This document shows positions 8,401-59,926 of a DNA stretch of 64,000 bases, one piece after another. The translations under genes and the position numbers were made by a program. The notes beneath the pieces were generated by a model. It saw only the letters and a list, made by a program, of their open reading frames with translations, was not told the DNA's origin and made no database searches. Position 1 is the first letter of the stretch. Each line of letters begins with the position of its first letter. Source of the DNA: Haliotis rufescens (lineage: Eukaryota); NCBI RefSeq assembly GCF_023055435.1, contig NW_025964334.1, forward strand, positions 2,232,001-2,296,000. Reading direction: 5' to 3'.

Positions 8401-8949
8401 AAAATAGCAGAGAAAAAATATACTCTGCAAAAAAGAAACGCCAAAGTGATTTTAGATATATATTTTATTCTGTGAAATGTTGTCAAAACACAGAATAGCT
8501 GCATTGATCACACAAACATTGCAAAGACTACGAGGTGTCTCCTCAAGTTATCAACAGATCGAGGCAGTTGTATATACGCACACACCTTTTGTCGTTCCCG
8601 GTTATGTAACAAACATTTTAATTCTATAAAAATATTGAAATATATGTCTAATATGGCTTTCAGTTTTAATTTTCAATTAAAGTATTAGCTTGGCGTAGTT
8701 TACACCCCTCCAAATCAATGCAACAATATTCGCTATATCCACTACTGTGGTATCAGAAGTTCCTGGATGACTTTCCAAATGTATTCCAGAAATGTGAGAA
8801 GTGTAAAGATGCTTGGAAAATCTAATAAAATATAGTTTTGTCAGTGCCAAGTAAACTGTATGGTGTGCTACTACAGGTTGTTGAATTTCTTCAAATGACA
8901 CCACAACCAACACACTGATAGCACTCGGGAGATTCCTATATATATTACA

Positions 8950-10582
8950 CATTGTAGATCAACAAAATCATGTTCACTGGATCCTCTACCAACTTGGCTT
9001 TTGAAGAAATGTCTCAACGAAACCCTACCAATAATAACACAACTTGTGAACTCATCTCTATCTGATGCTGAAGTGCCAAGTGCCCTCAATTTTGCTCTGA
9101 TTTCGCCAATCTTGAAGAAGCCTCAATTAGATCATGAGATCTTGAAGAACTATCGACCTGTGTCGAACTTATCCTTCATTTCCAAAGTTTTGGAAAGGAT
9201 AGTAGTGAACCAGCTCGTTGATCATATCCAAAGTACTGGAAATATGGAGGATATGCAGTCTGCATATAGGCACTTTCATAGTGCTGAGACTGCACTTGTT
9301 AAAGTGCAGAACGATCTCCTACAAGCAGTGGGTTCAAAAGGAGCGGCTATATTAGTTCTCCTTGACTTATCAGCCGCCTTTGACACTATAGACCAATCCA
9401 TAATTCTATCATTATTAGAGGACAGGTTTGGAATTACAGGAAATGCTCTCGCGTGGATGCAGTCATATCTCTCCGGGCGATTCCAATCTGTTCAACTGAA
9501 AGGCACAACATCTAAAAAGTCGAGCTAAAAAACGGTGTTCCCCAAGGTTCAGTGTTTGGACCTTTGCTATTCCCAATCTACACCTCTTCCCTTGGTGAAG
9601 TGGTCCACTCACACGGCATTACATTCCATTTGTTTGCTGATGACACACAGAGATTCTTGTCATTCAAACTTACAAACGAGGTCTCGTGTGAACTTGCATT
9701 TGCAGCTGTCATGTCATGTGTAGCCGATATCAAACTATGGATGAGAAACAATTTTCTCAAATTAAACAGTGACAAAACTGAACTTGTCATCATCACCTCG
9801 AAGGCATCACAACACAGGTTGACAATACCAGAGTTCAACATCGGCGGAATTGTTATTGAGCCAAGCTACCAAGCAAGAAACCTTGGGGTTATCTTTGATT
9901 CAAACCTGACCTATGAGGCACACAACAACAAAGTCTGCAAAAAAGCATTTCTCAACATCAGGAACATCAGTCAAGTGCGACGCTATCTTAACACCAAGAC
10001 AGTCACTACTATTGTACAAGCGTGCGTGCTATCACACCTTGACTACTGCAATGCCCTTCTGGTAGGATTACCGAAACACCAGTTCCAAAAGCTTCAGCGG
10101 GTACAAAACTCTGCTGCCAGACTGATCACAAGAGCCAAACGCTGTGAGCACATCACACCGAATCTGAAAGGTCTACACTGGCTTAAAGTAGAACAGAGAA
10201 TATGGTTAAAGGTTCTCGTTCTTGTGTCCAAGGCACAGCATGGTCTTGCTCCAAGCTACCTGGAGGATCTCATCATACAATACCAGTCAACAAGAACCCT
10301 ACGATATTGTGATCAATCGTTGCTTGAAGTGCCACCATCAAGAACAATCTCCTACGGGGATCGCTGCTTTGCAAGGGCTGGTCCTCTTCTTTGGAACACC
10401 CTGCCCAAAGAACTCAGAATGCTCAGTGAACTTAACAGTTTCAAAAAACATCTGAAGACACACTTGTTCAGCAAAATATATACGGCCATACCAACTGTGC
10501 GAGCTTCAAGAGCGCATTTGAGCAGTCAGTCTGGAAACTAGCGCTATATAAATACCAAGTTAATAAAAGTTAATAATAATAA
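8950..10582 (+). mobile_element. 5'-truncated L2/CR1-group LINE RT with one frameshift
   Basis: [65 protein letters not shown]; (TAA)n tail. Confidence 0.92.
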
Positions 10583-22696: not shown

Positions 22697-23697
22697 TCAA
22701 TAGCTTGTGTGTCCGACTCTGGTTGCGATGCAAGCAACACATCTTCGTCTCATGGAATGGACCAGGCGTCGCACAAAGTCCTGTGGGATATCTGTCCATA
22801 TCTGCTGGAGCATGTTTCGAAATTCCTGGAGTGTCTGTGGAACACGTGGTTGACGTCGAAGGCGCCGATCCATCTCATCCCACGTGTGCTCGATTGGTGA
22901 GAGATCAGGGGAGCGAGCCGGCCAGGGGATGACATTCACGTTGTTTTGTTGAAGAGAATCCTGAACAAGTCGAGCAATATTAGGCCGGGCGTTGTCATGT
23001 TGAAAGGTAATGCCTGGGCAATGACGACGCAAAAACGGTAGAACAACAGGGCCGATGATCTCGTAGCGCTGTCCATTGAGATTTCCCTCTACCACTATCA
23101 AACGGGTCCTCTGTCTTGCTGTAATCCCACCCCATACCATAACGCTGCCGCCCCCTGAACCGATCTTCTTCCATGACACAATGATTGACGTAACGTTCAC
23201 CTCGTCACTCGAATCCGTCCGTCGCTGTGGCTGAGGTGAAAACGAGACTCGTCAGTGAAGAGAACTTGTCCCCACTGCATGGCCGTCGAGCGTAGACGCT
23301 GTCTGCACCACTGTAGACGTGCTTGACGGTGGTTTCCTGTCAAAATGGGACGTCTGGCGGGTCTTCTGGCGACAATCCCTGCACATCTGAGGCGACGACG
23401 TACGGTTTGTGAAGATATTCGTCGAAGGCCAGGGATGCTTCTTGCAGTCACTGTTGCTGGCTAGAATCGATTTCGTAGGTGTGTTGTTCAAATCCAGTTG
23501 TCTTGTCGATTATTGGTTACGCGTGGCCTGCCACTCCGAGGATGGTCTCTGACTGCATTCGTCTGTTGCCAACGTTGCCATAAACACCAAATGGTGTTTC
23601 TGTGGACGTTAATTTGTCTTGCAACATCACGTTGACTCGATCCTGCTTCAAGCATACCCATGGCTCGCAGACGCTCATTTTCGGACAAGCGTGGTAT
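22697..23697 (-). mobile_element. Tc1-like DDE transposase pseudogene
   Basis: PRLSENERLRAMGML..RSGRP..VLFTDESRF..FQHDNARP..SPDLSPIEH; stops and frameshifts; start codon mutated to ATA; TIRs not identified. Confidence 0.9.
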
Positions 23698-37397: not shown

Positions 37398-38500
37398 ATT
37401 ATTATTATTAATTTTATTAACTTGGTATTTATATAGCACTAGTTTCCAGACTGACTGCTCAAATGCGCTCTTGAAGCTCGCACAGTTGGTATGGCCGTAT
37501 ATATTTTGCTGAACAAGTGTGTCTTCAGATGTTTTTTGAAACTGTTAAGTTCACTGAGCATTCTGAGTTCTTTGTGCAGGGTGTTCCAAAGAAGAGGACC
37601 AGCCCTTGCAAAGCAGCGATCCCCGTAGGAGATTGTTCTTGATGGTGGCACTTCAAGCAACGATTGATCACAAGATCGTAGGGTTCTTGTTGACTGGTAT
37701 TGTATGATGAGATCCTCCAGGTAGCTTGGAGCAAGACCATGCTGTGCCTTGAACACAAGAACGAGAACCTTGAACCGTATTCTCTGTTCTACTTTAAGCC
37801 AGTGTAGACCTTTGAGAATCGGTGTGATGTGCTCACAGCGTTTGGCTCTTGTGATCAGTCTGGCAGCAGAGTTTTGTACCCGCTGAAGCTTTTGGAACTG
37901 GTGTTTCGGTAATCCTACCAGAAGGGCATTGCAGTAGTCAAGGTGCGATAGCACGCACGCTTGTACAATAGTAGTGACTGTCTTGGTGTTAAGATAGCGT
38001 CGCACTTGACTGATGTTCCTGATGTTGAGAAATGCTTTTTTGCAGACTTTGTTGATGTGTGCCTCGTAGGTCAGGTTTGAATCAAAGATAACCCCAAGGT
38101 TTCTTGTTTGGTAGCTTGGCTCAATAACAATTCCGTCGATGTTGAACTCTGGTATTGTCAATCTGTGTTTCGATGCCTTCGAGGTGATGATGACAAGTTC
38201 AGTTTTGTCACTGTTTAATTTGAGAAAATTGTTTCTCATCCATATTTTGATATCGGCTACACATGACATGACAGCTGCAAATGCAAGTACACACGAGACC
38301 TCGTTTGTTAGTTTGAATGACAAGTATATCTGTGTGTCATCAGCAAACAAATGGAATGTAATGCCGTGTGAGTGGACCACTTCACCCAGGGAAGAGGTGT
38401 AGATTGTGAATAGCAAAGGTCCAAACACTGAACCTTTGGGAACACCGTATTTTAGCTCGACCTTTTTAGATGTTGTGCCTTTCAGTTGAACAGATTGGTA
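37398..38500 (-). mobile_element. Mirror L2-like LINE, 5' part deleted
   Basis: ORF 37439..38509 is near-identical to 9552..10541. Confidence 0.92.
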
Positions 38501-39959
38501 TTGATTCAATCATCCAGGAACTTCTGATACCACAGTAGTGGATATAGCGAATATTGTTGCATTGATATCGAGGGGTGAAAACTACGCCAAGCTTATACTT
38601 TGATTGAAAATTAAAACTGAAAGCCATATTAGACATATATTTTAATATTTTTATAGAATTAAAATGTTTGTTACATAACCGGGAACGACAAAAAGTGTGT
38701 GCGTAAATACAACTGCCTCGATCTGTTGATAACTTGAGGAGACACCTCGTAGTCTTTGCAATGTTTGTGTGATCAATGCAGCTATTCTGTGTTTTGACAA
38801 CATTTCACAGAATAAAATATATATCTAAAATCACTTTGGCGTTTCTTTTTTGCAGTGTATATTTTTTCTCCGCTATTTTGCGTTTTAGACCCAATGGAAT
38901 CTGATTCGGCGGATAATCGTGATTGATTATGCTATGTCGTTGACGTTTTCATTTTTCTGACTTTGACGTTGTCGTTGACTCAACCATTTTTAGAAAAATC
39001 TCCAAACAGTTGCCTCAACTGCTAGTGTCACAATTTGGACGAGGGGAACGTCGACCGTCTTTTCCAGGGTCAGATCTTGAATCACAGAGACACAGGCTCA
39101 CAAGACATCATTGGTCTGAATCAGGTTGTCCTCTTGGGCAGTGAGGTTTGACGAATGTCATTGCCATGATGAATATTGGTTCAACGTCAGAGCCCGACGT
39201 CATCGAGTGGTATGTGCCTTCAACGTTCGTTTTCGATCCCAGCTTGTCATTGTACCTGGAAACCTCACTCGCCAACGTTACGTCAACGCAATTCTTCATC
39301 CATTTCTCATTTAGCTTCTCTGGCAACATGGTCACAACAAACTCTAGGTCCAGCATGATAATCTAGAAACAGCTAGTTTCACACACACTTTATTATGCAG
39401 AGCAGTGACTTGTGCTCCGCCTTCCAAATCCCCGGACATAAACCCCATGGAACATAGGAATAAAGCGAACTAACCCTTTCAATATCCAACAGAATATCTC
39501 TACATCAAGCAGAGTCGATTTTACAATTCCGACTATATTATGTTCATGTCTTTATGACCAGGTGATCGCGAAAAGGTGAGTGTATCCTGCCCCACCGGTA
39601 GCACCAATCACAAACACACGCAAAGGCGAAGAAAACAGGCTAATGCTGAACCCAAGCCTTGAAACTCTACTTGGCAAGGGCGAGAGTTTGAAATCATGGT
39701 CGTGTTTCTATTTTGCATGATATAGGCTGCGGAAGATGTTTAGCAGTGAATGCTAAAATACATGAATGATTCTCTTGAGTAAACCTTGGAATTCTGATGT
39801 TGCGCTTTTAATACTTATAAATGTCACAATTGCTTTTCAACATTCGTATCATATGGAGCAATAACAAATAAGTAATTGGTGATAATAACGAAACAGAAGA
39901 AACGCGAAATAGAGAATATTTTGTGGACATTCCGAGGAAAGAATAATTTCAAGCAACAT

Positions 39960-45423: not shown

Positions 45424-46839
45424 TGACACCAGCCCTGGAAACATCAAACATTAACCTTCGGATGTAACGAAAGCGGATTCAGCAAATAGACGGATTATCG
45501 TATTATCGAATTATCATATATTATATATTTAACTTTCCTCATGTGCGATTTTCTGATAAATCAAACTGAATTAAATCTCTTGCTTCTTATAGTCAGAGTG
45601 ACATATTTTACTTTGTTACTGCATGGAAAACGATGATTATGAAAACATTATTCAAACAGCATATAACATCATAATATGTTTTGTTTGTTTCTTGTTTAAC
45701 GCCGCACTTAGGAATAGTCCAGCTATATGACGATTGTATGAAAATATTCGAGCCTGGACCAGACAATCTAGTGATCAATATTGTAAGCAAAGATCGGACC
45801 GGCGTGAATTTGCTGGAATATTGCAGACACTAAACAACCCAAAAACAGTCAAATAGAGTTACCCTATTTAGGTGGCCCGTCGGCACAATACCATTGTCCG
45901 TCAATTATTTGAACATATACTACGCTTTAAAGACGTTAACGATTGTTTTTAATTTGCTTGCCGGTTTACAATCTCAGAAAAGAACCAGGTTCAATTCTGT
46001 GAAAATATTTGTTACATCACTATCCAAAAAGACAAACTTAAGGAGCAACTTCATTCCTTGATCCATTGGGCTTTTGTTACAAAACGTGGTGACCAGTTAC
46101 ATATCTGTCTTCAGAGGTCCAGATAATTTGTAAAAAAAGAACGCAAATGACATCTAAAGAGAAAACAGTTTGTGAAATGCTAGACTTCTTCTTTGTTAGC
46201 ATCTCATGTACAATCTAGGGGTAAGCCAATTTGGCAAGAATTAGGCATCTGAAAGTGCACTAACTGTGCTTCCATCCTTGCGGATCTGTTTCATCATGCA
46301 TATGGATAGGAATTTCTGTTCGGATTCGTAAAGTCAAAACAAGGTAATTTGGGCAAGAAGTTTAACTTGAGTTTCCGGAACAACGATGATCTAACAATCA
46401 ATTCCCTTTCACTGATTTTCCACCTCGTCTGTGTAATAGATCTATGCTATAGACAATATCACAGATCTGTGCAAAAGGATTCAAGTTTAAAGTTGTTTTA
46501 TCAAGGTTACAACATTCAAGGCCTCAGTAAAGCTTACAAAAGGTTTAACGCTAAACATATGGAGACATTTTCAAATTTGACACATCAGTGACAAAAATGA
46601 TATCCGATGCAAATCCCCTTTTGACTTGTTCCACATGTTCCTGTGTTCTTTCAAGAAAAACAATTTACTTGCTTTTGCATGTGTTTGTGATGAGTGACAA
46701 CAGAGTTGCGTCCCTTGGCCAGTGCATGCCATGCACGGGTAGCTCCGCTAGAAACCAACAGCAAGTAACAAAAAAGAGGCGCCTAGCTGTTATAGTTGTT
46801 ACATTTCGTTTTCAACTATCTAGAGAACGTTCTGAGATC

Positions 46840-47919
46840 ATGGGCGTGTCGGTGGAGGTATGGCGAGCACGTATTGGCACTTTCACCCACCCGCGTGGGT
46901 ACCGACAAGTCGGCCATATTGAGACGCGGTATACACCAGGGACGAGATGGACGCCCGGTAATGTGTTGGGCTATCGGCTCTTAGCTACATTATTGGTCAC
47001 CTACACAGTCTTTATTCTTGGAAACTCAGCAAACCAAGTGCAAACATTGTTACTGCTGTCAGGAGATATTGAAGAAAACCCCGGACCTGCTAAGGTAGAT
47101 ATTATTGCGGTTAAGGATGAGATTTTACATGAACTTCGTTTAGTGCGAGGCGAGTTAGCGAGAGACATTAGAGACGTGAAGTCAGACACAAGGAGGCTTA
47201 ATGAGACTGTTCTTTCAATTAAGCATGACATAGAGGATGTTAAAGCTAGGCAAGATATATTTCGTTTGGATTTGGATGCTGTAGCTGAGAGACTTTCCAA
47301 TGTGGAGGGGGACGACACGAGATCAATATCAGGTCAAGCATTATCAGCCGAAGTAAGTGATAGAATTGAAAAGCTGGAGAATTCCTTGGATAAATTGGAG
47401 CAATATAGCCGAAAACAGAATGTGCTAATCTATGGAATCTCCCAAAAACCCGGAGAAACTTTACACCAACTGAAAGAAGAGGTGTGTGAGGTATTTAATG
47501 ACCATGCCCGTGACAGTGACAGTGACTGTAAGTTCACACCAAGCGATATTGTGAATACTCACCGTCTTAGATCAAGTACAGTAAATCGCCTCAGTCCGGT
47601 TATTGTTCGTTTCACGTCGTTAGACTTGAAAATCAGGGCGATTGCCCCCCGTCCAAAGCTTAAAGAGAATGGTTACGGAATCGCAAATGACTTGACTATA
47701 GCTCAACGGAAGACGCTACAGGAGCTACGACGTAACAATAAGCGCGGATATTACAAGAAAGGGGTTCTTGTGGTTGAACATATGCAGACTACAGATAGAC
47801 GTCATGAGTCTCCACCAGGCCACCCAGACACAGACCAGGCGACTTCAAAGACTCCGCCCAGGGCGGGTGTGCCAGCTAGTGTCCGAAACCCACAGAATGA
47901 AGATGATTTTCGCAGATAG
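46840..47919 (+). CDS. LINE ORF1: hydrophobic leader + 2A-like peptide + coiled coil + L1-ORF1p-like RRM region
   Basis: MGVSVEVWRARIG.., LLATLLVTYTVFILG, LLLLSGDIEENPGP, heptad region, LEQYSRKQNVLIYGI..HRL..PVIVRF. Confidence 0.85.
   Translation: MGVSVEVWRARIGTFTHPRGYRQVGHIETRYTPGTRWTPGNVLGYRLLATLLVTYTVFILGNSANQVQTLLLLSGDIEENPGPAKVDIIAVKDEILHELRLVRGELARDIRDVKSDTRRLNETVLSIKHDIEDVKARQDIFRLDLDAVAERLSNVEGDDTRSISGQALSAEVSDRIEKLENSLDKLEQYSRKQNVLIYGISQKPGETLHQLKEEVCEVFNDHARDSDSDCKFTPSDIVNTHRLRSSTVNRLSPVIVRFTSLDLKIRAIAPRPKLKENGYGIANDLTIAQRKTLQELRRNNKRGYYKKGVLVVEHMQTTDRRHESPPGHPDTDQATSKTPPRAGVPASVRNPQNEDDFRR
47041..47088 (+). other. 2A-like StopGo motif QTLLLLSGDIEENPG/P
   Basis: Exact match to the D(V/I)ExNPGP consensus preceded by a Leu-rich stretch. 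Confidence 0.85.
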
Positions 47920-50900
47920 GGGTGTGGCCAAGGCCGTAACTGTAACTCTAATACCAGACTAACCACTTCTTTTGTATTCTGGAACATTGCTGGACTACAA
48001 TCGAAGCTCCACGATACTGACTTTATCTCATTCATACACCAATTTGATGTCATCAGTTTATGTGAAACATGGTCATCCCATAGTGATAGTCAACTATGTT
48101 TCCCCGGATATATTACTCACTCCATCCCAGCTGAGCAAATATCATTTTTTGGGCGACTGTCAGGTGGTCTGGTTGTTTTGATAAAACAACACCTAGTCCA
48201 ATATGTGAAAGGTTGTGTGACCGGTCCCAACGGAATTTTCATCGTACTGGACAAGCGTTTATTTTGTTTGGGAAAGGACACCATTGTAGCTTGTGTATAT
48301 GTCCATCCTGAGGGCTCAACCTGGTATAAATCGGCTACAACGAAGTGTGGTATAAGTTTATTCTTTGAATCACTACTTGACGTGTTACAAAGATTTGGAG
48401 GCTGTAGTATTTTGATTGGTGGCGACCTTAACTCTAGAACTGGCACAGATCCCGACGGAATTGAATGTGACATTGCCGAAAGGCTTGGGATTGATGATTT
48501 TTCGGACATTTATGATAATATTGATATTAAGAGACATTCGTGTGATTCAAAAGTTAATAATTTTGGTAAAGTGCTATTGAATGTTTGTAGTGCTTTAAAT
48601 TTATATATTTGTAATGGCCGATGTGGTTCGGACGCTGGGAAAGGAGACTTTACATTTATAAGTCAGATTGGACAGAGTGTTGTTGATTATATCATAACAG
48701 GCCCTGACTTGTTTACATCATGTGACCGCTTCGATGTCCTATCTAGGCCAGATTCAGATCATCTGCCTGTTGCGTGTTCATTTGTGTCACGTGATATGGC
48801 TTCTGTGGGTGCTAGCTTATGTAATGCACGAGATGTGCGTGACAACTCCCGTTATGTGTGGAATGAAGATAAAGTGTCAACATTTAGAGATGTATTACTT
48901 TCTGACAAGTCAGCTTCAGTGTTTGATCAGTGTAATGAACATATTTTATCTGGAAAATTTGATGATGCTGTAACTTTATTCTCAGATTTATTAGGTAATG
49001 CAGCAGAATGTATGCGTAAGTTTTGCCCATCTGCTTGGTTAGTCGATAAGCAACCTTGGTTTGATAAAGAGTGTGAATTTCTTAGATTTGAAAAGCAAAG
49101 ACTGCTTAAAGTTTATAGACTACTTGGGGATCATTTGGCACTTTCAAACTATCTACATGCAAGAAATAAATATACAAATATACTCCATAACAAAAGAAAA
49201 GCCTACCAAGATAAAATTCTTAGTAATATGGTGACAGGCATACACAACAGCAAAATATTTTGGTCACAATTGAAGCTACTCTCTGGTGAGGGAAGGAGAC
49301 GCTCTCCTAATATAGAACTAGGAGATTGGTATCAGCACTTTAAGAACTTATTTGGTGAATACTCTTCTTCAGAGGTTGAGGAGAATTTAGTTTTTGACGA
49401 TGTTAATTTTGACGAAACAACTCAGAGTATTCTTGATTCCCCTATTTCACAGGATGAAGTGCTTGATGCGATTACAGGATTGAAAAATAATAAAGCTGCT
49501 GGAGATGATGGACTGATAGCAGAAATGTTTAAGTCTTCTCCTGATGTTCTGGTTCCTTTTTTGACATTCTTCTTTAATGCTATATTTGATTCTGCATATT
49601 TTCCCTCATCTTGGGCTGTTTGCCACATTGTTCCTATATATAAGAAAGGCGATGCCAATTCTCCCACTAATTATAGGGGTATCACTATCTTAAGTGTATT
49701 CAGTAAACTTTATATTTCTATTTTAAACAGAAGACTTCAGTTTTGGTCGGAATCCTATGATAGACTAGTAGAGTCTCAGGCTGGTTTTAGGAGTGGATAT
49801 TCCACAACTGATAATATTTTTGTTTTATATTCAGTAATAGAGAAATATTTGGCTAAGAAACGAGGTGTGATTTATGCCTTGTTTGTTGATTTTGCCAAAG
49901 CCTTTGATTCCATAGATAGATCCAAATTGCGTATGGTACTATACAAAAATGGTATTTCTCCGAAAATGTTCTGTTGTATACAGTCAATTTATAAACAAGT
50001 TTTGGCATTGGTCAAATACAATAACTCATTTTCTGATATGTTTAGCTGCAGTAACGGAGTTCGTCAAGGATGTGTCCTTAGTCCCATTTTGTTTGCCTTG
50101 TTCATAAATGATCTTGCCATAGATATTGAATCCAGTTGCGCACATGGTATCCAATTTCATCCAGATGTAGTTCAATTGTTTTTATTACTTTTCGCAGATG
50201 ATGTCATTCTCATAGCAGATACTGTTTATGGTCTCCAGAAAAGAATCAATGTGTTAGAATGTTATTGTAAAGATTATTCATTAACAGTCAATATTGATAA
50301 AACTAAAGTAGTAGTTTTTAAAAATGGGAGTGTTCTTTCAAAATATGAAAAATGGGTTTACGATGGAAAATTGTTGGAATGTGTAACTACATATAAATAC
50401 CTTGGTGTATTATTTTTTCGAAATCTATCTTGGAGTGCACATATATCTAATGTTGTTAATCAAGCTAAAAAGGTTTTGTTTAAGCTTTTGAAGTCCCTAC
50501 AGCTAATTAAACCTACTCCTATGAATATTTTCTTTAAAATTTTTGATGCTAAAGTTGTGCCAGTACTTCTTTACGGTGCAGAAGTTTGGGGTTTATCTTT
50601 ATCGTTTTGCGAGGAGATTGAAGTTGTTCATACACTTGCTTGTAAACGTATTTTAGGAGTTAAGTCAGCAACTTCCAATCATGTTGTGCGTGGAGAGTGT
50701 GGGAGATACCCTTTGTATATCTATGCTTTCAAAAGATGCTTGAATTATTGGTGTAAGATTTTAAAGATGCCCGATTCGCGTTATCCACGAAAAAGTTACA
50801 ATATGCTTGTGCAGCAGGCCATAGCAGGTAAGACTAATTGGGCCTCTAGAGTTAAATTACTTTTGTACGCCTATGGCTTTGGCTACGTATGGGAAAATCA

Positions 50901-51393
50901 GCATCTTGTTATTTCTATTTCATTTATTGATGAGTTCATACAAAGATTAAAATGCTCTTATGAACAAGATTGGCATTTTGCTTTGACCAATAGCCCCAAG
51001 TATTCATCATATCTTTGTTATAAATTTAGGTTTAGCAGGGAATTTTATTTATCGGCTATTACAATCAATAAGTTTCGCGTTGCACTGGCACGTTTTAGAG
51101 CTAGCTCCCACTCGCTCCACATAGAAACCGGGAGATATTTTGGTATCCCAAGACAGCGAAGGTTATGTATGGTTTGTAAAACAGGCTATGTTGAGTCTGA
51201 ATACCATTTTGTATTGGTTTGTGAAAAATATTATGCTCTCCGAGTGACATATATTCCTCAAAAATATTATGTAAATCCATCAATAGAACAATTTTACATA
51301 CTTATGTCGTCTCTGCATCAGTCAACAATTAGAAGTCTGGCTTGTTATATTTACCACGCTTTTAAGTTAAGGAATTCATTTTTGCAGAAGTAA
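47920..51393 (+). CDS. LINE ORF2: AP endonuclease + reverse transcriptase + C-terminal CCHC zinc-finger region
   Basis: Open from 47920: FWNIAGL, LCETW, GDLNSR, VVDY, SDHLP (APE); NYRGI, QAGFR, FVDFAKAFDS, GVRQGCVLSP, LFADD, YKYLG (RT). Confidence 0.95.
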   Translation, partial: GCGQGRNCNSNTRLTTSFVFWNIAGLQSKLHDTDFISFIHQFDVISLCETWSSHSDSQLCFPGYITHSIPAEQISFFGRLSGGLVVLIKQHLVQYVKGCVTGPNGIFIVLDKRLFCLGKDTIVACVYVHPEGSTWYKSATTKCGISLFFESLLDVLQRFGGCSILIGGDLNSRTGTDPDGIECDIAERLGIDDFSDIYDNIDIKRHSCDSKVNNFGKVLLNVCSALNLYICNGRCGSDAGKGDFTFISQIGQSVVDYIITGPDLFTSCDRFDVLSRPDSDHLPVACSFVSRDMASVGASLCNARDVRDNSRYVWNEDKVSTFRDVLLSDKSASVFDQCNEHILSGKFDDAVTLFSDLLGNAAECMRKFCPSAWLVDKQPWFDKECEFLRFEKQRLLKVYRLLGDHLALSNYLHARNKYTNILHNKRKAYQDKILSNMVTGIHNSKIFWSQLKLLSGEGRRRSPNIELGDWYQHFKNLFGEYSSSEVEENLVFDDVNFDETTQSILDSPISQDEVLDAITGLKNNKAAGDDGLIAEMFKSSPDVLVPFLTFFFNAIFDSAYFPSSWAVCHIVPIYKKGDANSPTNYRGITILSVFSKLYISILNRRLQFWSESYDRLVESQAGFRSGYSTTDNIFVLYSVIEKYLAKKRGVIYALFVDFAKAFDSIDRSKLRMVLYKNGISPKMFCCIQSIYKQVLALVKYNNSFSDMFSCSNGVRQGCVLSPILFALFINDLAIDIESSCAHGIQFHPDVVQLFLLLFADDVILIADTVYGLQKRINVLECYCKDYSLTVNIDKTKVVVFKNGSVLSKYEKWVYDGKLLECVTTYKYLGVLFFRNLSWSAHISNVVNQAKKVLFKLLKSLQLIKPTPMNIFFKIFDAKVVPVLLYGAEVWGLSLSFCEEIEVVHTLACKRILGVKSATSNHVVRGECGRYPLYIYAFKRCLNYWCKILKMPDSRYPRKSYNMLVQQAIAGKTNWASRVKLLLYAYGFGYVWENQHLVISISFIDEFIQRLKCSYEQDWHFALTNSPKYSSYLCYKFRFSREFYLSAITINKFRVALARFRASSHSLHIETGRYFGIPRQRRLCMVCKTGYVESEYHFVLVCEKYYALRVTYIPQKYYVNPSIEQFYILMSSLHQSTIRSLACYIYHAFKLRNSFLQK

Positions 51394-53277
51394 TATTCTT
51401 TATCTATGAATGCCTTGCTGTTGTGTATTTAGGTGTACACAGTTGTATTTTTATACATGTCTGGTGAACCGAATTGTACTATGGGCCGCTGGCCCACTCA
51501 TGTACTGAATAAACAGATTAGAGTGTAAGTAACTGCTATGCAAAACAATATATTTTATTTGTTGTATCCCTAATATCTGTTAACTTATATAAAAATTCCA
51601 ATCGACATTCCACCTTATTTAATTTTCTTCCAGTTATAGTTATAAAAACAATGGACAAAGTGAATAAAGTAGAAAAGTAGTAGAAATATCAGTTATAAAT
51701 AATCCTTGTACTTTACTTTGATGAGTTATATCTTGACACAGCAAGCGTAATTCCAAATTAACATGTCGATTTTGTTTCATCAAAATTAGTAAATGCAAAA
51801 TGGCGTCACTAGATTTCTTGTCCACTAATTCACGGCCCGTTACAATCAAAGAGCCAATTCCCTATTTCATAGGACTTGAATGTCAACCTACAACCAATGG
51901 CACGTCACCCGCGAACATCCGGGTTAGAATAGCTCTTGTCTTGTCGTAATAGGCGAATAACGGGATCGAGTCGTAAGTCTCGCTGACTTGGTTGATGCAT
52001 GATGTCACTCACTGGATTGCCTGGTCCAGACGCAGTTATTTACAGACCGCCGTGATATAGCTGGAATATTGCTTTGTGCAGCGTTGTACTCATGCTCCCA
52101 ATAAGTGTCCGGATAGTTGCCATGGGAAGATTGTTCCGCTCTTCAGTAAGAAAATTGCTCGGTGGCTTCAGAGTTGGAAGCACAGGGAGTCTTGAGAGAG
52201 CGATCTGCAGCTCGTTCCACATAGGGTCCGATGTGGATGAGGTCTGGTGGTTGGGATGGTCACTCCATATGGACAATGGTCTCCTGCTAGCAGTGGGCAT
52301 GAAAGACACTGGCACGATGAGGTTGAGCGTTTTCGTCAATGATGAAGCCCGGCCCGACTTGCACCAGTACACATCAAGAATGTCATCCCTGTAACGCACA
52401 CCTTCTATCACGCCCCGTTGTAGGACATGGAGATCGGTTCTTCACGCTTTACTGATCCCTCCCCATATCGTGATTGAGCCCCCTGCAAAGTGGTCATGCT
52501 CGGCTACGTTGGAATCCTGAAAGAACTGGAGCCCAGACCTGGTCTGTCCAACTGACATGATCTTCAGCCCAATCCAAAAGTGCCTGCTTGTGATATAGGG
52601 TCAGTAAGCGGAGACCAGCCTCCCGGAGACGATTACGCTGAGATGACGTCTTGCTGCATTCAGGAGAAACCTGTCTTCCATCCGTGGGGCAGGACACTGT
52701 CGACCACCAGCATGTCGCTGGGTAGCTGATTCAAACGTCTTGTATCGACTCATACTTTGGAAGACGTTTGTAACGTGACACCTTTGTGGCTGAGGGGGCA
52801 TAAGTGCATTCATTTGTTGCAATCTTCAGCAACAAATGTTAATGTTCTCTCTGATAATGATCTGCAACGATTTTGTCACAATACATGCAAACCCATGTCT
52901 CTGTCCAATAATTGTGTGCCGGGATTTTTCAATATTTGTTGGCTGATCACAACTTGATCCTCAGCAAACTTTAGTTAGTATGCCATCAGTGACACGTATA
53001 CGTGAGACAACAATGGCAACAAATTAGGGCGACTTGCAGAACTTAGCCAAACTTGAATATCCAATAATTTTTAATATGATACCATTAGACTTTATCTATA
53101 CAATTTTCTGTGATTAAGATAAGCTCATATTTGTTGATCTTTAATAAAGTGCCATTTGGAATTTTATTCCATTCATTTTAGAGATACTTGATTAATTATT
53201 GATATTGACATTAACCGAAGACTGGGCAAGAGTCAGGAAGTGCTGCAGTTGATGTAAGATACAGAAAGCAAGGCGAT

Positions 53278-58403: not shown

Positions 58404-59926
58404 TACTAGCCACATAAAGAAACTGTGCACGGAGAAAATATAGATATAAGGGCACACCGTTCATATATGAAATATAGGTTTGAACACAGCAATTATTGGA
58501 GACATTAAAACGCTCATGCACGTGCCATGCGATATGACGTCATTGATGGGGGCCTATGGACGTGCAATGTGTTACTGCACGTGCATCCTGTGCAGCTGTA
58601 CACAGCATGTGCAACTCAAAATTCGCTGTCACTTTGGAAAGCATGATCTGTGGTCATTCAAAAATTCAAAACTTCTCAGGCACAGACACAAGCATATCAC
58701 AAGCAAATCATGCCAAGATTGACAGCTGCACGGCGTCATGAAGCCATTGGAATGATCCGAGCGGGAATGAGGCAACAATAGGTGGCAACACATTTCCAAT
58801 GCCATCGTAACACGATATCGGCATTGGTGAGGCGTTATCAGAACACAAATGACGTTGCCGACCACACACGTTCAGGACGTCCCCGAGTAACGACGCCAAG
58901 ACAGGACAGATGGATTCGAGTTACACATCTCCGACACAGGTTCCAAACGGCAGTAACGACGTCCCAGACAATTCCTGGACTGCGCCGTATCCATCCCAAT
59001 ACTGTCAGGAATCGTTGACGTCAGTACGGGATTCGACCACGACGCCCTGCCATACGTCCCATCCTGACACACCGGCATCGAGTCAACCGTCTAAGATTGT
59101 GTCGAAATCATGTTCGCCAACCTCGATTATGGTGGAGAAATGTTGTCTTTACAGATGAATCGAGGTTCAACATTTCCCACAGTGACGGGCGCCAACGTGT
59201 CTACCGGCGTTTGGGAGAACGTTATGCACGCAACTGTATTGTGGAGAGGAATCGTTTTGGAGGTGGCTCTGTGATGATTTGGGGTGGGATAACAGCACGG
59301 CACCGAACCCCTTTGGTGGTTGTTCAGGGCAATCTCACCGGTGTTGACTACAGATATCAGATTCTGAGGCTTGTGGTCATTCCTTTCCTGCAACGTCATG
59401 GCCCGGGATTGACATTTCAACAGGACAACGCTCGTCCTCACACGGCAAGGGTCGCAATGGATTACCTTCACCATAACAATGTCATGTTACTGCCATGGCC
59501 TGCAAATTCTCCAGATCTCTCCCCAATAGAGCATGTGTGGGATGAAATGGAGCGCCGTCTGCGTCGTCTTCCACATCCTCCAGATAACGTCCGTGACTTG
59601 GCACAGGATTTGAGGAGGATATGGCAGGCCATTCCCCAGGCCTTCCATGCCCATTTGGTGGACTCCATGCGTCGCCGATGCACTGCTGTGATTCACGCAC
59701 AGGTTGGTCATACCCGTTATTGACTTTGTGACTTTGCCGTTTGACCCCCTACTCCATTTTGATCTTCTGACGTCATCGTAACAGATGTTGTTGAGGTCCC
59801 GTTGACATTTTCTAATGGTCCGATCATTCAGCTGCTACAGCGTCTGCATCATTTTGTTCTTGCTGTGTTGTATTTCAATCCAGAATATATTTTTTCTCCG
59901 TGCACAGTTTCTTTATGTGGCTAGTA
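58404..59926 (+). mobile_element. Full-length Tc1 (DD34E) transposon with TIRs and TA target duplication
   Basis: TIR tactagccacataaagaaactgtgcacggagaaaa at 58404 and its perfect reverse complement ending 59926, flanked by TA. Confidence 0.95.
58710..59723 (+). pseudogene. Tc1 transposase with two in-frame stops
   Basis: MPRLTAARRHEAIGMI..QQ*VA..RSGRP..RNR*RQ..FTDESRF..QQDNARPH..(34 aa)..SPIEHVW. Confidence 0.92.

Follow-up and report, generated by a model that had tools for sequence, protein, structure and literature searches.

How is the reverse transcriptase (RT) of a retrotransposon synthesized when its open reading frame (ORF) possesses no start codon of its own? This question is raised by a long interspersed nuclear element (LINE) in 64,000 nucleotides of Haliotis rufescens DNA (assembly GCF_023055435.1, contig NW_025964334.1, positions 2,232,001–2,296,000, forward strand), a stretch referred to in its whole length as the window. 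The synthesis of the ORF2 protein (ORF2p) of bicistronic LINEs is poorly understood, and the models in the surveyed literature comprise reinitiation (L1 and SART1), 2A sequences, and a brief suggestion of readthrough in Paramecium. In the present element, ORF1 terminates at a TAG and the same frame continues open through the endonuclease and RT domains of ORF2 (Table 1), as described in an initial annotation of the sequence. Its other positional statements were likewise confirmed: the endonuclease motif FWNIAGL begins at 47977, 19 codons past the stop; the first in-frame ATG, at 48796, is located downstream of the endonuclease; and the TTG at 48178 is in frame within this domain. Six ATGs occur within 47850–48100, every one of them out of the ORF2 frame, and in-frame ATG, CTG, GTG, TTG, and ACG are all absent from the linker between the TAG and the endonuclease. 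Taken as a whole, the best explanation is that ORF2p is likely produced as a readthrough fusion to ORF1, likely stimulated by a predicted pairing between a short box behind the stop and a stem-loop at the 3′ end of the element.

The stop codon and the frame are conserved well beyond this locus. A DNA search of the same genome yielded 10 matches, comprising seven near-identical copies spanning the junction, one 5′-truncated copy, and two distant copies. TAG and frame are retained in all seven spanning copies, with neither a sense codon nor an upstream ATG in this family, the two observations that the initial annotation had named as refuting its reading. Furthermore, searching at the protein level with the endonuclease gave 150 scored places, and the 126 with an N-terminal part were taken and grouped into 25 families at 80% DNA identity. 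Six of these loci were not aligned and seven come from four families lacking a clean representative; at the 113 alignable junctions, the codon is TAG in 106, TGG in two, and AAG, TCG, CAG, GAG, and TTG in one each. The seven non-TAG junctions represent scattered single changes, not one shared change, and the frame is still intact in 93 of the 106 TAG junctions. All 25 families display the junction motif, F15, F19, F23, and F24 only in degenerate copies that were read by eye. Because TAG is kept across copies and families, a private nonsense mutation, the alternative raised in the initial annotation, is excluded. Contigs from four runs also span the stop, and none of them shows a different letter there or a joint across it; the kind of these contigs is uncertain, and they are uninformative on expression, editing, and splicing.

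Additional searches with divergent queries extended the working set to 33 families with a median endonuclease identity of 32%; this set is conditioned, as 21 families entered by an in-frame-TAG filter and 12 were picked by hand for the stop and the box. Within it, the ORF1 stop is TAG in 29 families, TAA in three, and TGA in one, and the ORF2 stop in seven intact copies is TAA in four, TAG in two, and TGA in one. No in-frame ATG precedes the first endonuclease W-N motif in 29/33 families, and in two of the other four, a methionine is located at most two residues from W-N. Approximately half of the families, including that of the window, also possess no in-frame CTG, GTG, TTG, or ACG before the first endonuclease motif. 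The linker comprises approximately 17–43 codons, longer printed values being those of broken copies. Distant families devoid of the GGCC box also retain an in-frame TAG-G. The layout of stop and frame is a real, clade-wide feature. Regarding the linker itself, TAG-G stands just six codons ahead of the endonuclease W-N in the distant LINE families L315 and L318/L326, with a local hairpin directly after the stop in L315, and L316, L323, L325, and L341 carry very long acidic or repetitive linkers (200–560 codons) ahead of the endonuclease; in L341, the TAG and the pairing box are kept 217 codons upstream of this domain.

The initial annotation had regarded UAG followed by G, together with downstream structure, as the signal, based on the gammaretroviral gag-pol context. 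A readthrough fusion remains the best reading, whereas the details depart from the gammaretroviral model. UAG-G is not invariant, as some families carry TAA or TGA, or a C or an A after the stop, and the 60–120 nt downstream of the TAG (47917–48040) fold no better than shuffled sequences (z of +0.89, +1.29, and −0.40). No large local stem-loop of the proximal readthrough element (PRTE) type was found by folding 3′ of the stop, and for an H-type pseudoknot from +12, neither a stable local fold nor conservation after +19 was found, a dedicated pseudoknot program not having been run. What is conserved among the 33 families is the stop, 6 nt, and GGCC-NN-GGCC. G is present at +10 in 33/33 families, the box of F13 lying one codon further, whereas the spacer is mostly GGGTGT and varies across families. 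G occupies +4 in 25/33 families, and the codon after the stop is the glycine codon GGG in 18/33 and GGA in 4/33; the UAG-GGG of the window corresponds to the type III context of Beier and Grimm (UAG-GGV, UAG-GUA, or UAG-GAU). Conservation falls off past +19. The constraint on the box acts at the nucleotide level: GGC accounts for 24/31 glycine codons at codon +3 and 21/22 at codon +5, versus 10/117 at conserved endonuclease glycines, which served as a control. A 3-bp local hairpin is intact in 19/30 families, and its central pair, +12:+17, is broken in 9/30. A metagenome scan with the 19-nt motif returned 78 matches, six of them LINE junctions whose frame continues into the start of an endonuclease and 72 not LINEs by tblastn; these matches demonstrate spread rather than conservation because the scan was led by the motif and some matches may share a source. 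As a separate observation, type I-like contexts (TAA-CAA-TCA, TAA-CAA-GTA, or TAG-CAG-ACT) stand ahead of the same box in L300/L309, L292, and L280, in place of type III.

A partner for this box is predicted at the other end of the element. The 3′ ends of the families contain a stem-loop core, RGGCC-NNN-GGCCY, ahead of AATAAA. The junction from +4 to +30 was compared with up to 101 tiles of the element in 29 families, along with upstream and downstream control slices. The tail tile is the best partner in 15/29 families and among the top three in 24/29, whereas for each control slice it ranks first in 0/29 and among the top three in 3/29. Cognate partners exceeded shuffled partners with p = 0.024 across the 29 families, relatedness being ignored in this value. 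In the window, the predicted duplex reaches −26.9 kcal/mol (rank 2/101) with a distance of 3.56 kb between box and stem-loop, and its net gain over local hairpins is −7.2 kcal/mol for +4 to +30. Compensation constitutes better evidence for pairing than the cognate statistics. In L322/L331, both sides have changed: the box reads GACC, the tail reads GGTC, and the tail ranks 1/101. In a sister group, L324/L338 and L341, box and tail are wholly different and still pair; the tails are of an ACCAC type, pairing sets in at approximately +10, and the flanking helix differs from case to case (ranks 1/90, 1/88, and 1/91). The duplex between box and tail probably forms. Separately, the 3′ untranslated region of L145 and L058 (F11) is apparently approximately 800 nt long, and in L145, 4.3 kb separate the stop from the conserved stem-loop.

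Several observations, in addition to the conditioning of the family set, weigh against this explanation. With the first 19 families, the cognate test gave p = 0.11, and with +13 to +27 only, p = 0.18; similarly, the window segment from +13 to +30, which is likely outside the ribosome, gains just −1.0 kcal/mol over local hairpins. Both cores are GGCC palindromes, in which similarity equals complementarity, and pairing is therefore inseparable from mimicry there. No pairing with the tail was detected in F1 (22 loci, intact copies included; rank 37/101), F10 (rank 40/101), L346 (49/97), L350 (25/87), L351 (36/89), or L319 (61/87), and in F17 (rank 12) and F21 (rank 8), pairing is weak, although all of these keep an in-frame TAG; the tails of L343, L349, L353, L355, L357, and L358 were not reliably located. 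With respect to the layout, the related LINE L321 has a stop-start arrangement, TGA-ATG-ATG, where ORF2 begins; L316, L323, and L325 each consist of one single long frame; and proteins P0001–P0013, nested in the clade, are called with a methionine that precedes the endonuclease or coincides with its start, albeit from protein records without DNA context. In F1 (e.g., L042) and F10 (e.g., L055), which fall into different subclades of a quick RT tree, GAC GA replaces GGC CA and complementarity to the tail is lost; a search of these two families for an alternative partner within the element yielded no convincing shared site.

Considering both sides, programmed stop-codon readthrough likely yields the ORF1–ORF2 fusion, whereas the part of the duplex in driving it receives only a slight preference. 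Most ribosomes would terminate at the TAG and release ORF1p, and a minority would insert an amino acid there, resulting in a fusion of approximately 1517 amino acids, or approximately 1435 if the 2A-like motif of ORF1 skips. Type III UAG-GG is weak alone, and readthrough there requires downstream structure, located at +12 in Moloney murine leukemia virus (MoMLV) and more than 3.5 kb away in the tombusvirus carnation Italian ringspot virus (CIRV) (PMC13517186; PMC3234231), whereas type I contexts need none (PMC13517186). A duplex from +10 would be positioned at the mRNA entry channel, comparable to the MoMLV pseudoknot at +12, and fits the role of such a structure. The tail hairpin probably doubles as the recognition element of the RT, in which case readthrough would favor full-length RNAs and pairing would alternate with priming. 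The broadest form of the proposal is evenly balanced in our judgment: in a large animal LINE clade, RT would be produced solely by readthrough, and pairing of the junction with the hairpin recognized by RT, 3.5 kb away, would act as its trigger, providing a tombusvirus-like check for full length and a switch from translation to priming, on an RNA that may also undergo 2A skipping and with ORF2p born as an ORF1p fusion. If true, a readthrough signal that covaries across the clade and depends on the 3′ end would bring to LINEs a mechanism demonstrated to date in RNA viruses of plants, and would explain both how the ORF1p:ORF2p ratio is set and how the expenditure of RT on truncated RNAs is avoided; ORF2p, as an ORF1 fusion, would be attached to ORF1p multimers. 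Gene callers mis-start such ORF2s within the endonuclease.

Other routes to ORF2p must be weighed against readthrough stimulated by the duplex. A separate ORF2p could arise by AUG-independent termination-reinitiation of the L1 or SART1 type, the duplex between junction and tail keeping the ribosome close to a non-AUG start at a fixed site immediately past the stop. The AUG of L1 is reportedly dispensable for this step, a result attributed to Alisch in 2006. SART1 needs structure 3′ of its stop-start site and L1 reinitiates unconventionally (PMC5972666), a start fixed beside the stop would conserve the frame just as readthrough does, and the TGA-ATG of L321 represents coupling in a relative. 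However, a UAAUG overlap is absent and the ORF2 frame has no AUG close to the stop; the linkers of the window and of approximately half of the 33 families offer none of the non-AUG candidates either, and the strong bias toward TAG with G at +4 is a feature of readthrough with no role in reinitiation. We accordingly regard this route as quite unlikely. Readthrough could also depend on the local codon context only, with the box–tail pairing, or a box that mimics the tail hairpin, serving RNA circularization, ribonucleoprotein assembly, or RT loading. The unpaired junctions of F1, F10, L319, L346, and L350 retain their in-frame TAG, the TAA-CAA-TCA and TAG-CAG families possess contexts like that of tobacco mosaic virus, type I sites requiring no structure (PMC13517186), and the local hairpin survives in most of the families compared; nevertheless, its central pair is broken in 9/30, type III sites act only weakly when no structure assists them (PMC13517186), and the box keeps a fixed distance of 6 nt from the stop even in sister families with different sequences. 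This explanation is possible and appears rather unlikely.

Editing of the RNA, or a stop that is mutational or spliced out, would account for the data less well. Adenosine-to-inosine editing is known from the amber/W site of hepatitis delta, and UAG is a preferred triplet of ADAR; with a long-range duplex predicted close by, UAG might be edited to a tryptophan codon within it. Edited RNAs would, however, retrotranspose as TGG, which was found in 2/113 junctions beside AAG, TCG, CAG, GAG, and TTG, and the core duplex begins at +10 and leaves the stop uncovered, whereas families with TAA exist; editing is thus highly improbable. The notion that the element has a single ORF into which a private nonsense mutation introduced the TAG, or that the TAG is spliced out, could draw on the few copies with a sense codon and a continuous frame (L057, L068, and L082) and on single-frame relatives (L316), but it is scarcely credible, since TAG is present in 7/7 same-family copies and 106/113 junctions overall and each sense copy carries a different change; private mutation as such was rejected on these counts.

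Table 1. Coordinates of the LINE and its parts, numbered from the first nucleotide of the window
Feature	Position	Strand	Basis and remarks
Full-length, intact, young RTE-X-like LINE	46703..51521 (ends approximate)	+	Copies L002, L006, and L007 align from ~46702-46718 at 99% identity; AATAAA at 51508
ORF1, 359 amino acids, ATG at 46840, TAG-terminated	46840..47919	+	Translation; domain order in the text
2A-like (StopGo) motif, end GDIEENPG|P	47023..47088	+	Motif reading; predicted activity only
ORF1 stop codon TAG, predicted readthrough codon	47917..47919	+	Conserved in copies and families
6-nt spacer GGGTGT, Beier-Grimm type III context UAG-GGG	47920..47925	+	Fixed length, variable sequence across families; PMC13517186
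GGCC-AA-GGCC box, +10 to +19	47926..47935	+	Nucleotide-level constraint; predicted 5′ side of the duplex with the tail
ORF2, 1157 codons without own start: 19-codon linker, APE endonuclease, RT, C-terminal Cys/His motif	47920..51393	+	Open frame, Pfam
3′-terminal stem-loop, core GGGCC-GCT-GGCCC at 51483-51495	51475..51505	+	Directly 5′ of AATAAA; predicted 3′ partner, competing local hairpin

The remaining features of the element are those of a two-ORF LINE. ORF1 comprises, in order, an N-terminal segment with a hydrophobic stretch, the 2A-like motif, a coiled coil, an L1-type RNA recognition motif with a C-terminal domain, and a variable low-complexity tail; the LINE-1 ORF1p structures 2ykp/2yko were weakly matched (E 0.02), and Pfam coiled-coil matches stayed below the cut-off. 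The 2A-like motif occurs in 16/25 families and may add a further recoding event to this RNA; by itself, such a motif is insufficient for ribosome skipping (PMC3708506). In the window, the motif, of the form GD(V/I)ExNPGP, is preceded by a conserved N-terminal WRxRIGxF motif and the hydrophobic stretch. In ORF2, Pfam matched Exo_endo_phos (PF03372) at residues 21–281 and RVT_1 (PF00078) at residues 575–830. No clear target-site duplication was found around the element by eye. Elsewhere in the window, two near-identical 5′-truncated copies of another LINE, with a CR1/L2-like RT by eye, are located at 8899–10541 (+) and 37439–38509 (−), and Tc1/mariner-like transposase remnants were recognized by eye at 22697–23251, 52040–52441, and 59019–59723 (all −), the second of which (52040–52441) gave no match in Pfam.

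A short tandem-repeat 3′ tail defines the RTE group; GATT/TGAT-type tandem repeats follow AATAAA in relatives, with only a stub in the window copy. The RT tree mentioned above was built by a quick method, 27 of 80 long loci having been dropped for short RT matches, and contains no named references. The window LINE likely belongs to the RTE-X clade because its RT resembles that of RTEX-23_SK, with 37/69 identities by eye in the first RT block of a published alignment, and fewer by eye to the RTE, Proto2, and Tad1 rows (PMC10294476; Martelossi et al., 2023). Both encode an ORF2 of APE and RT, and the length of approximately 4.8 kb is close to the RTE-X mean of 4937 bp (PMC10294476). Furthermore, the visible start of the bivalve RTE-X consensus LINE_S.grandis_24_cons displays, by eye, an ORF1 tail, an in-frame TAG-G, and W-N after 11 codons (PMC10294476), the main text of the same article making no mention of readthrough.

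Among known systems, the Paramecium non-LTR Group 3 LINEs have also been suggested to use readthrough (PMC5405496); they represent a ciliate clade, and the account given there for Group 3 describes no cis-signal, covariation, or long-range pairing. A literature search, with Repbase, subscription journals, and some supplements outside its scope, yielded no account of readthrough in RTE-X elements, nor of any LINE with a long-range signal. SART1 and L1 share the bicistronic LINE RNA, and structure 3′ of the stop matters in SART1, whereas both possess an ORF2 AUG, which the window LINE does not, its frame and stop type being conserved instead (PMC5972666; PMC3708506). GD(V/I)ExNPGP ahead of an L1-type ORF1p coiled coil is known from LINEs of a limpet and of ticks (PMC3708506; PMC13405545); here, the motif, a predicted 2A only, stands on one RNA with an in-frame readthrough junction. 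The gag-pol junction of MoMLV resembles the present one in its type III UAG-GG, in the fusion of a structural protein to RT, and in the distance of the stimulator (+12, and a predicted +10 here) (PMC13517186), whereas the LINE has no local H-type pseudoknot, its stop and spacer vary among families, and its ORF2 encodes no protease. The pairing of PRTE and distal readthrough element (DRTE) in CIRV differs in its large local stem-loop at the stop, which the LINE does not possess; in the LINE host, the predicted partner sets in at +10, and its pairing would unfold the tail hairpin. The two systems are alike in UAG-GG, in a partner approximately 3.5 kb away at the 3′ end within a replication structure with an alternative fold, and in a polymerase produced as a readthrough fusion (PMC3234231; PMC13517186). 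The junction of the window element would be, as predicted from its sequence, a LINE version of this known recoding mechanism.

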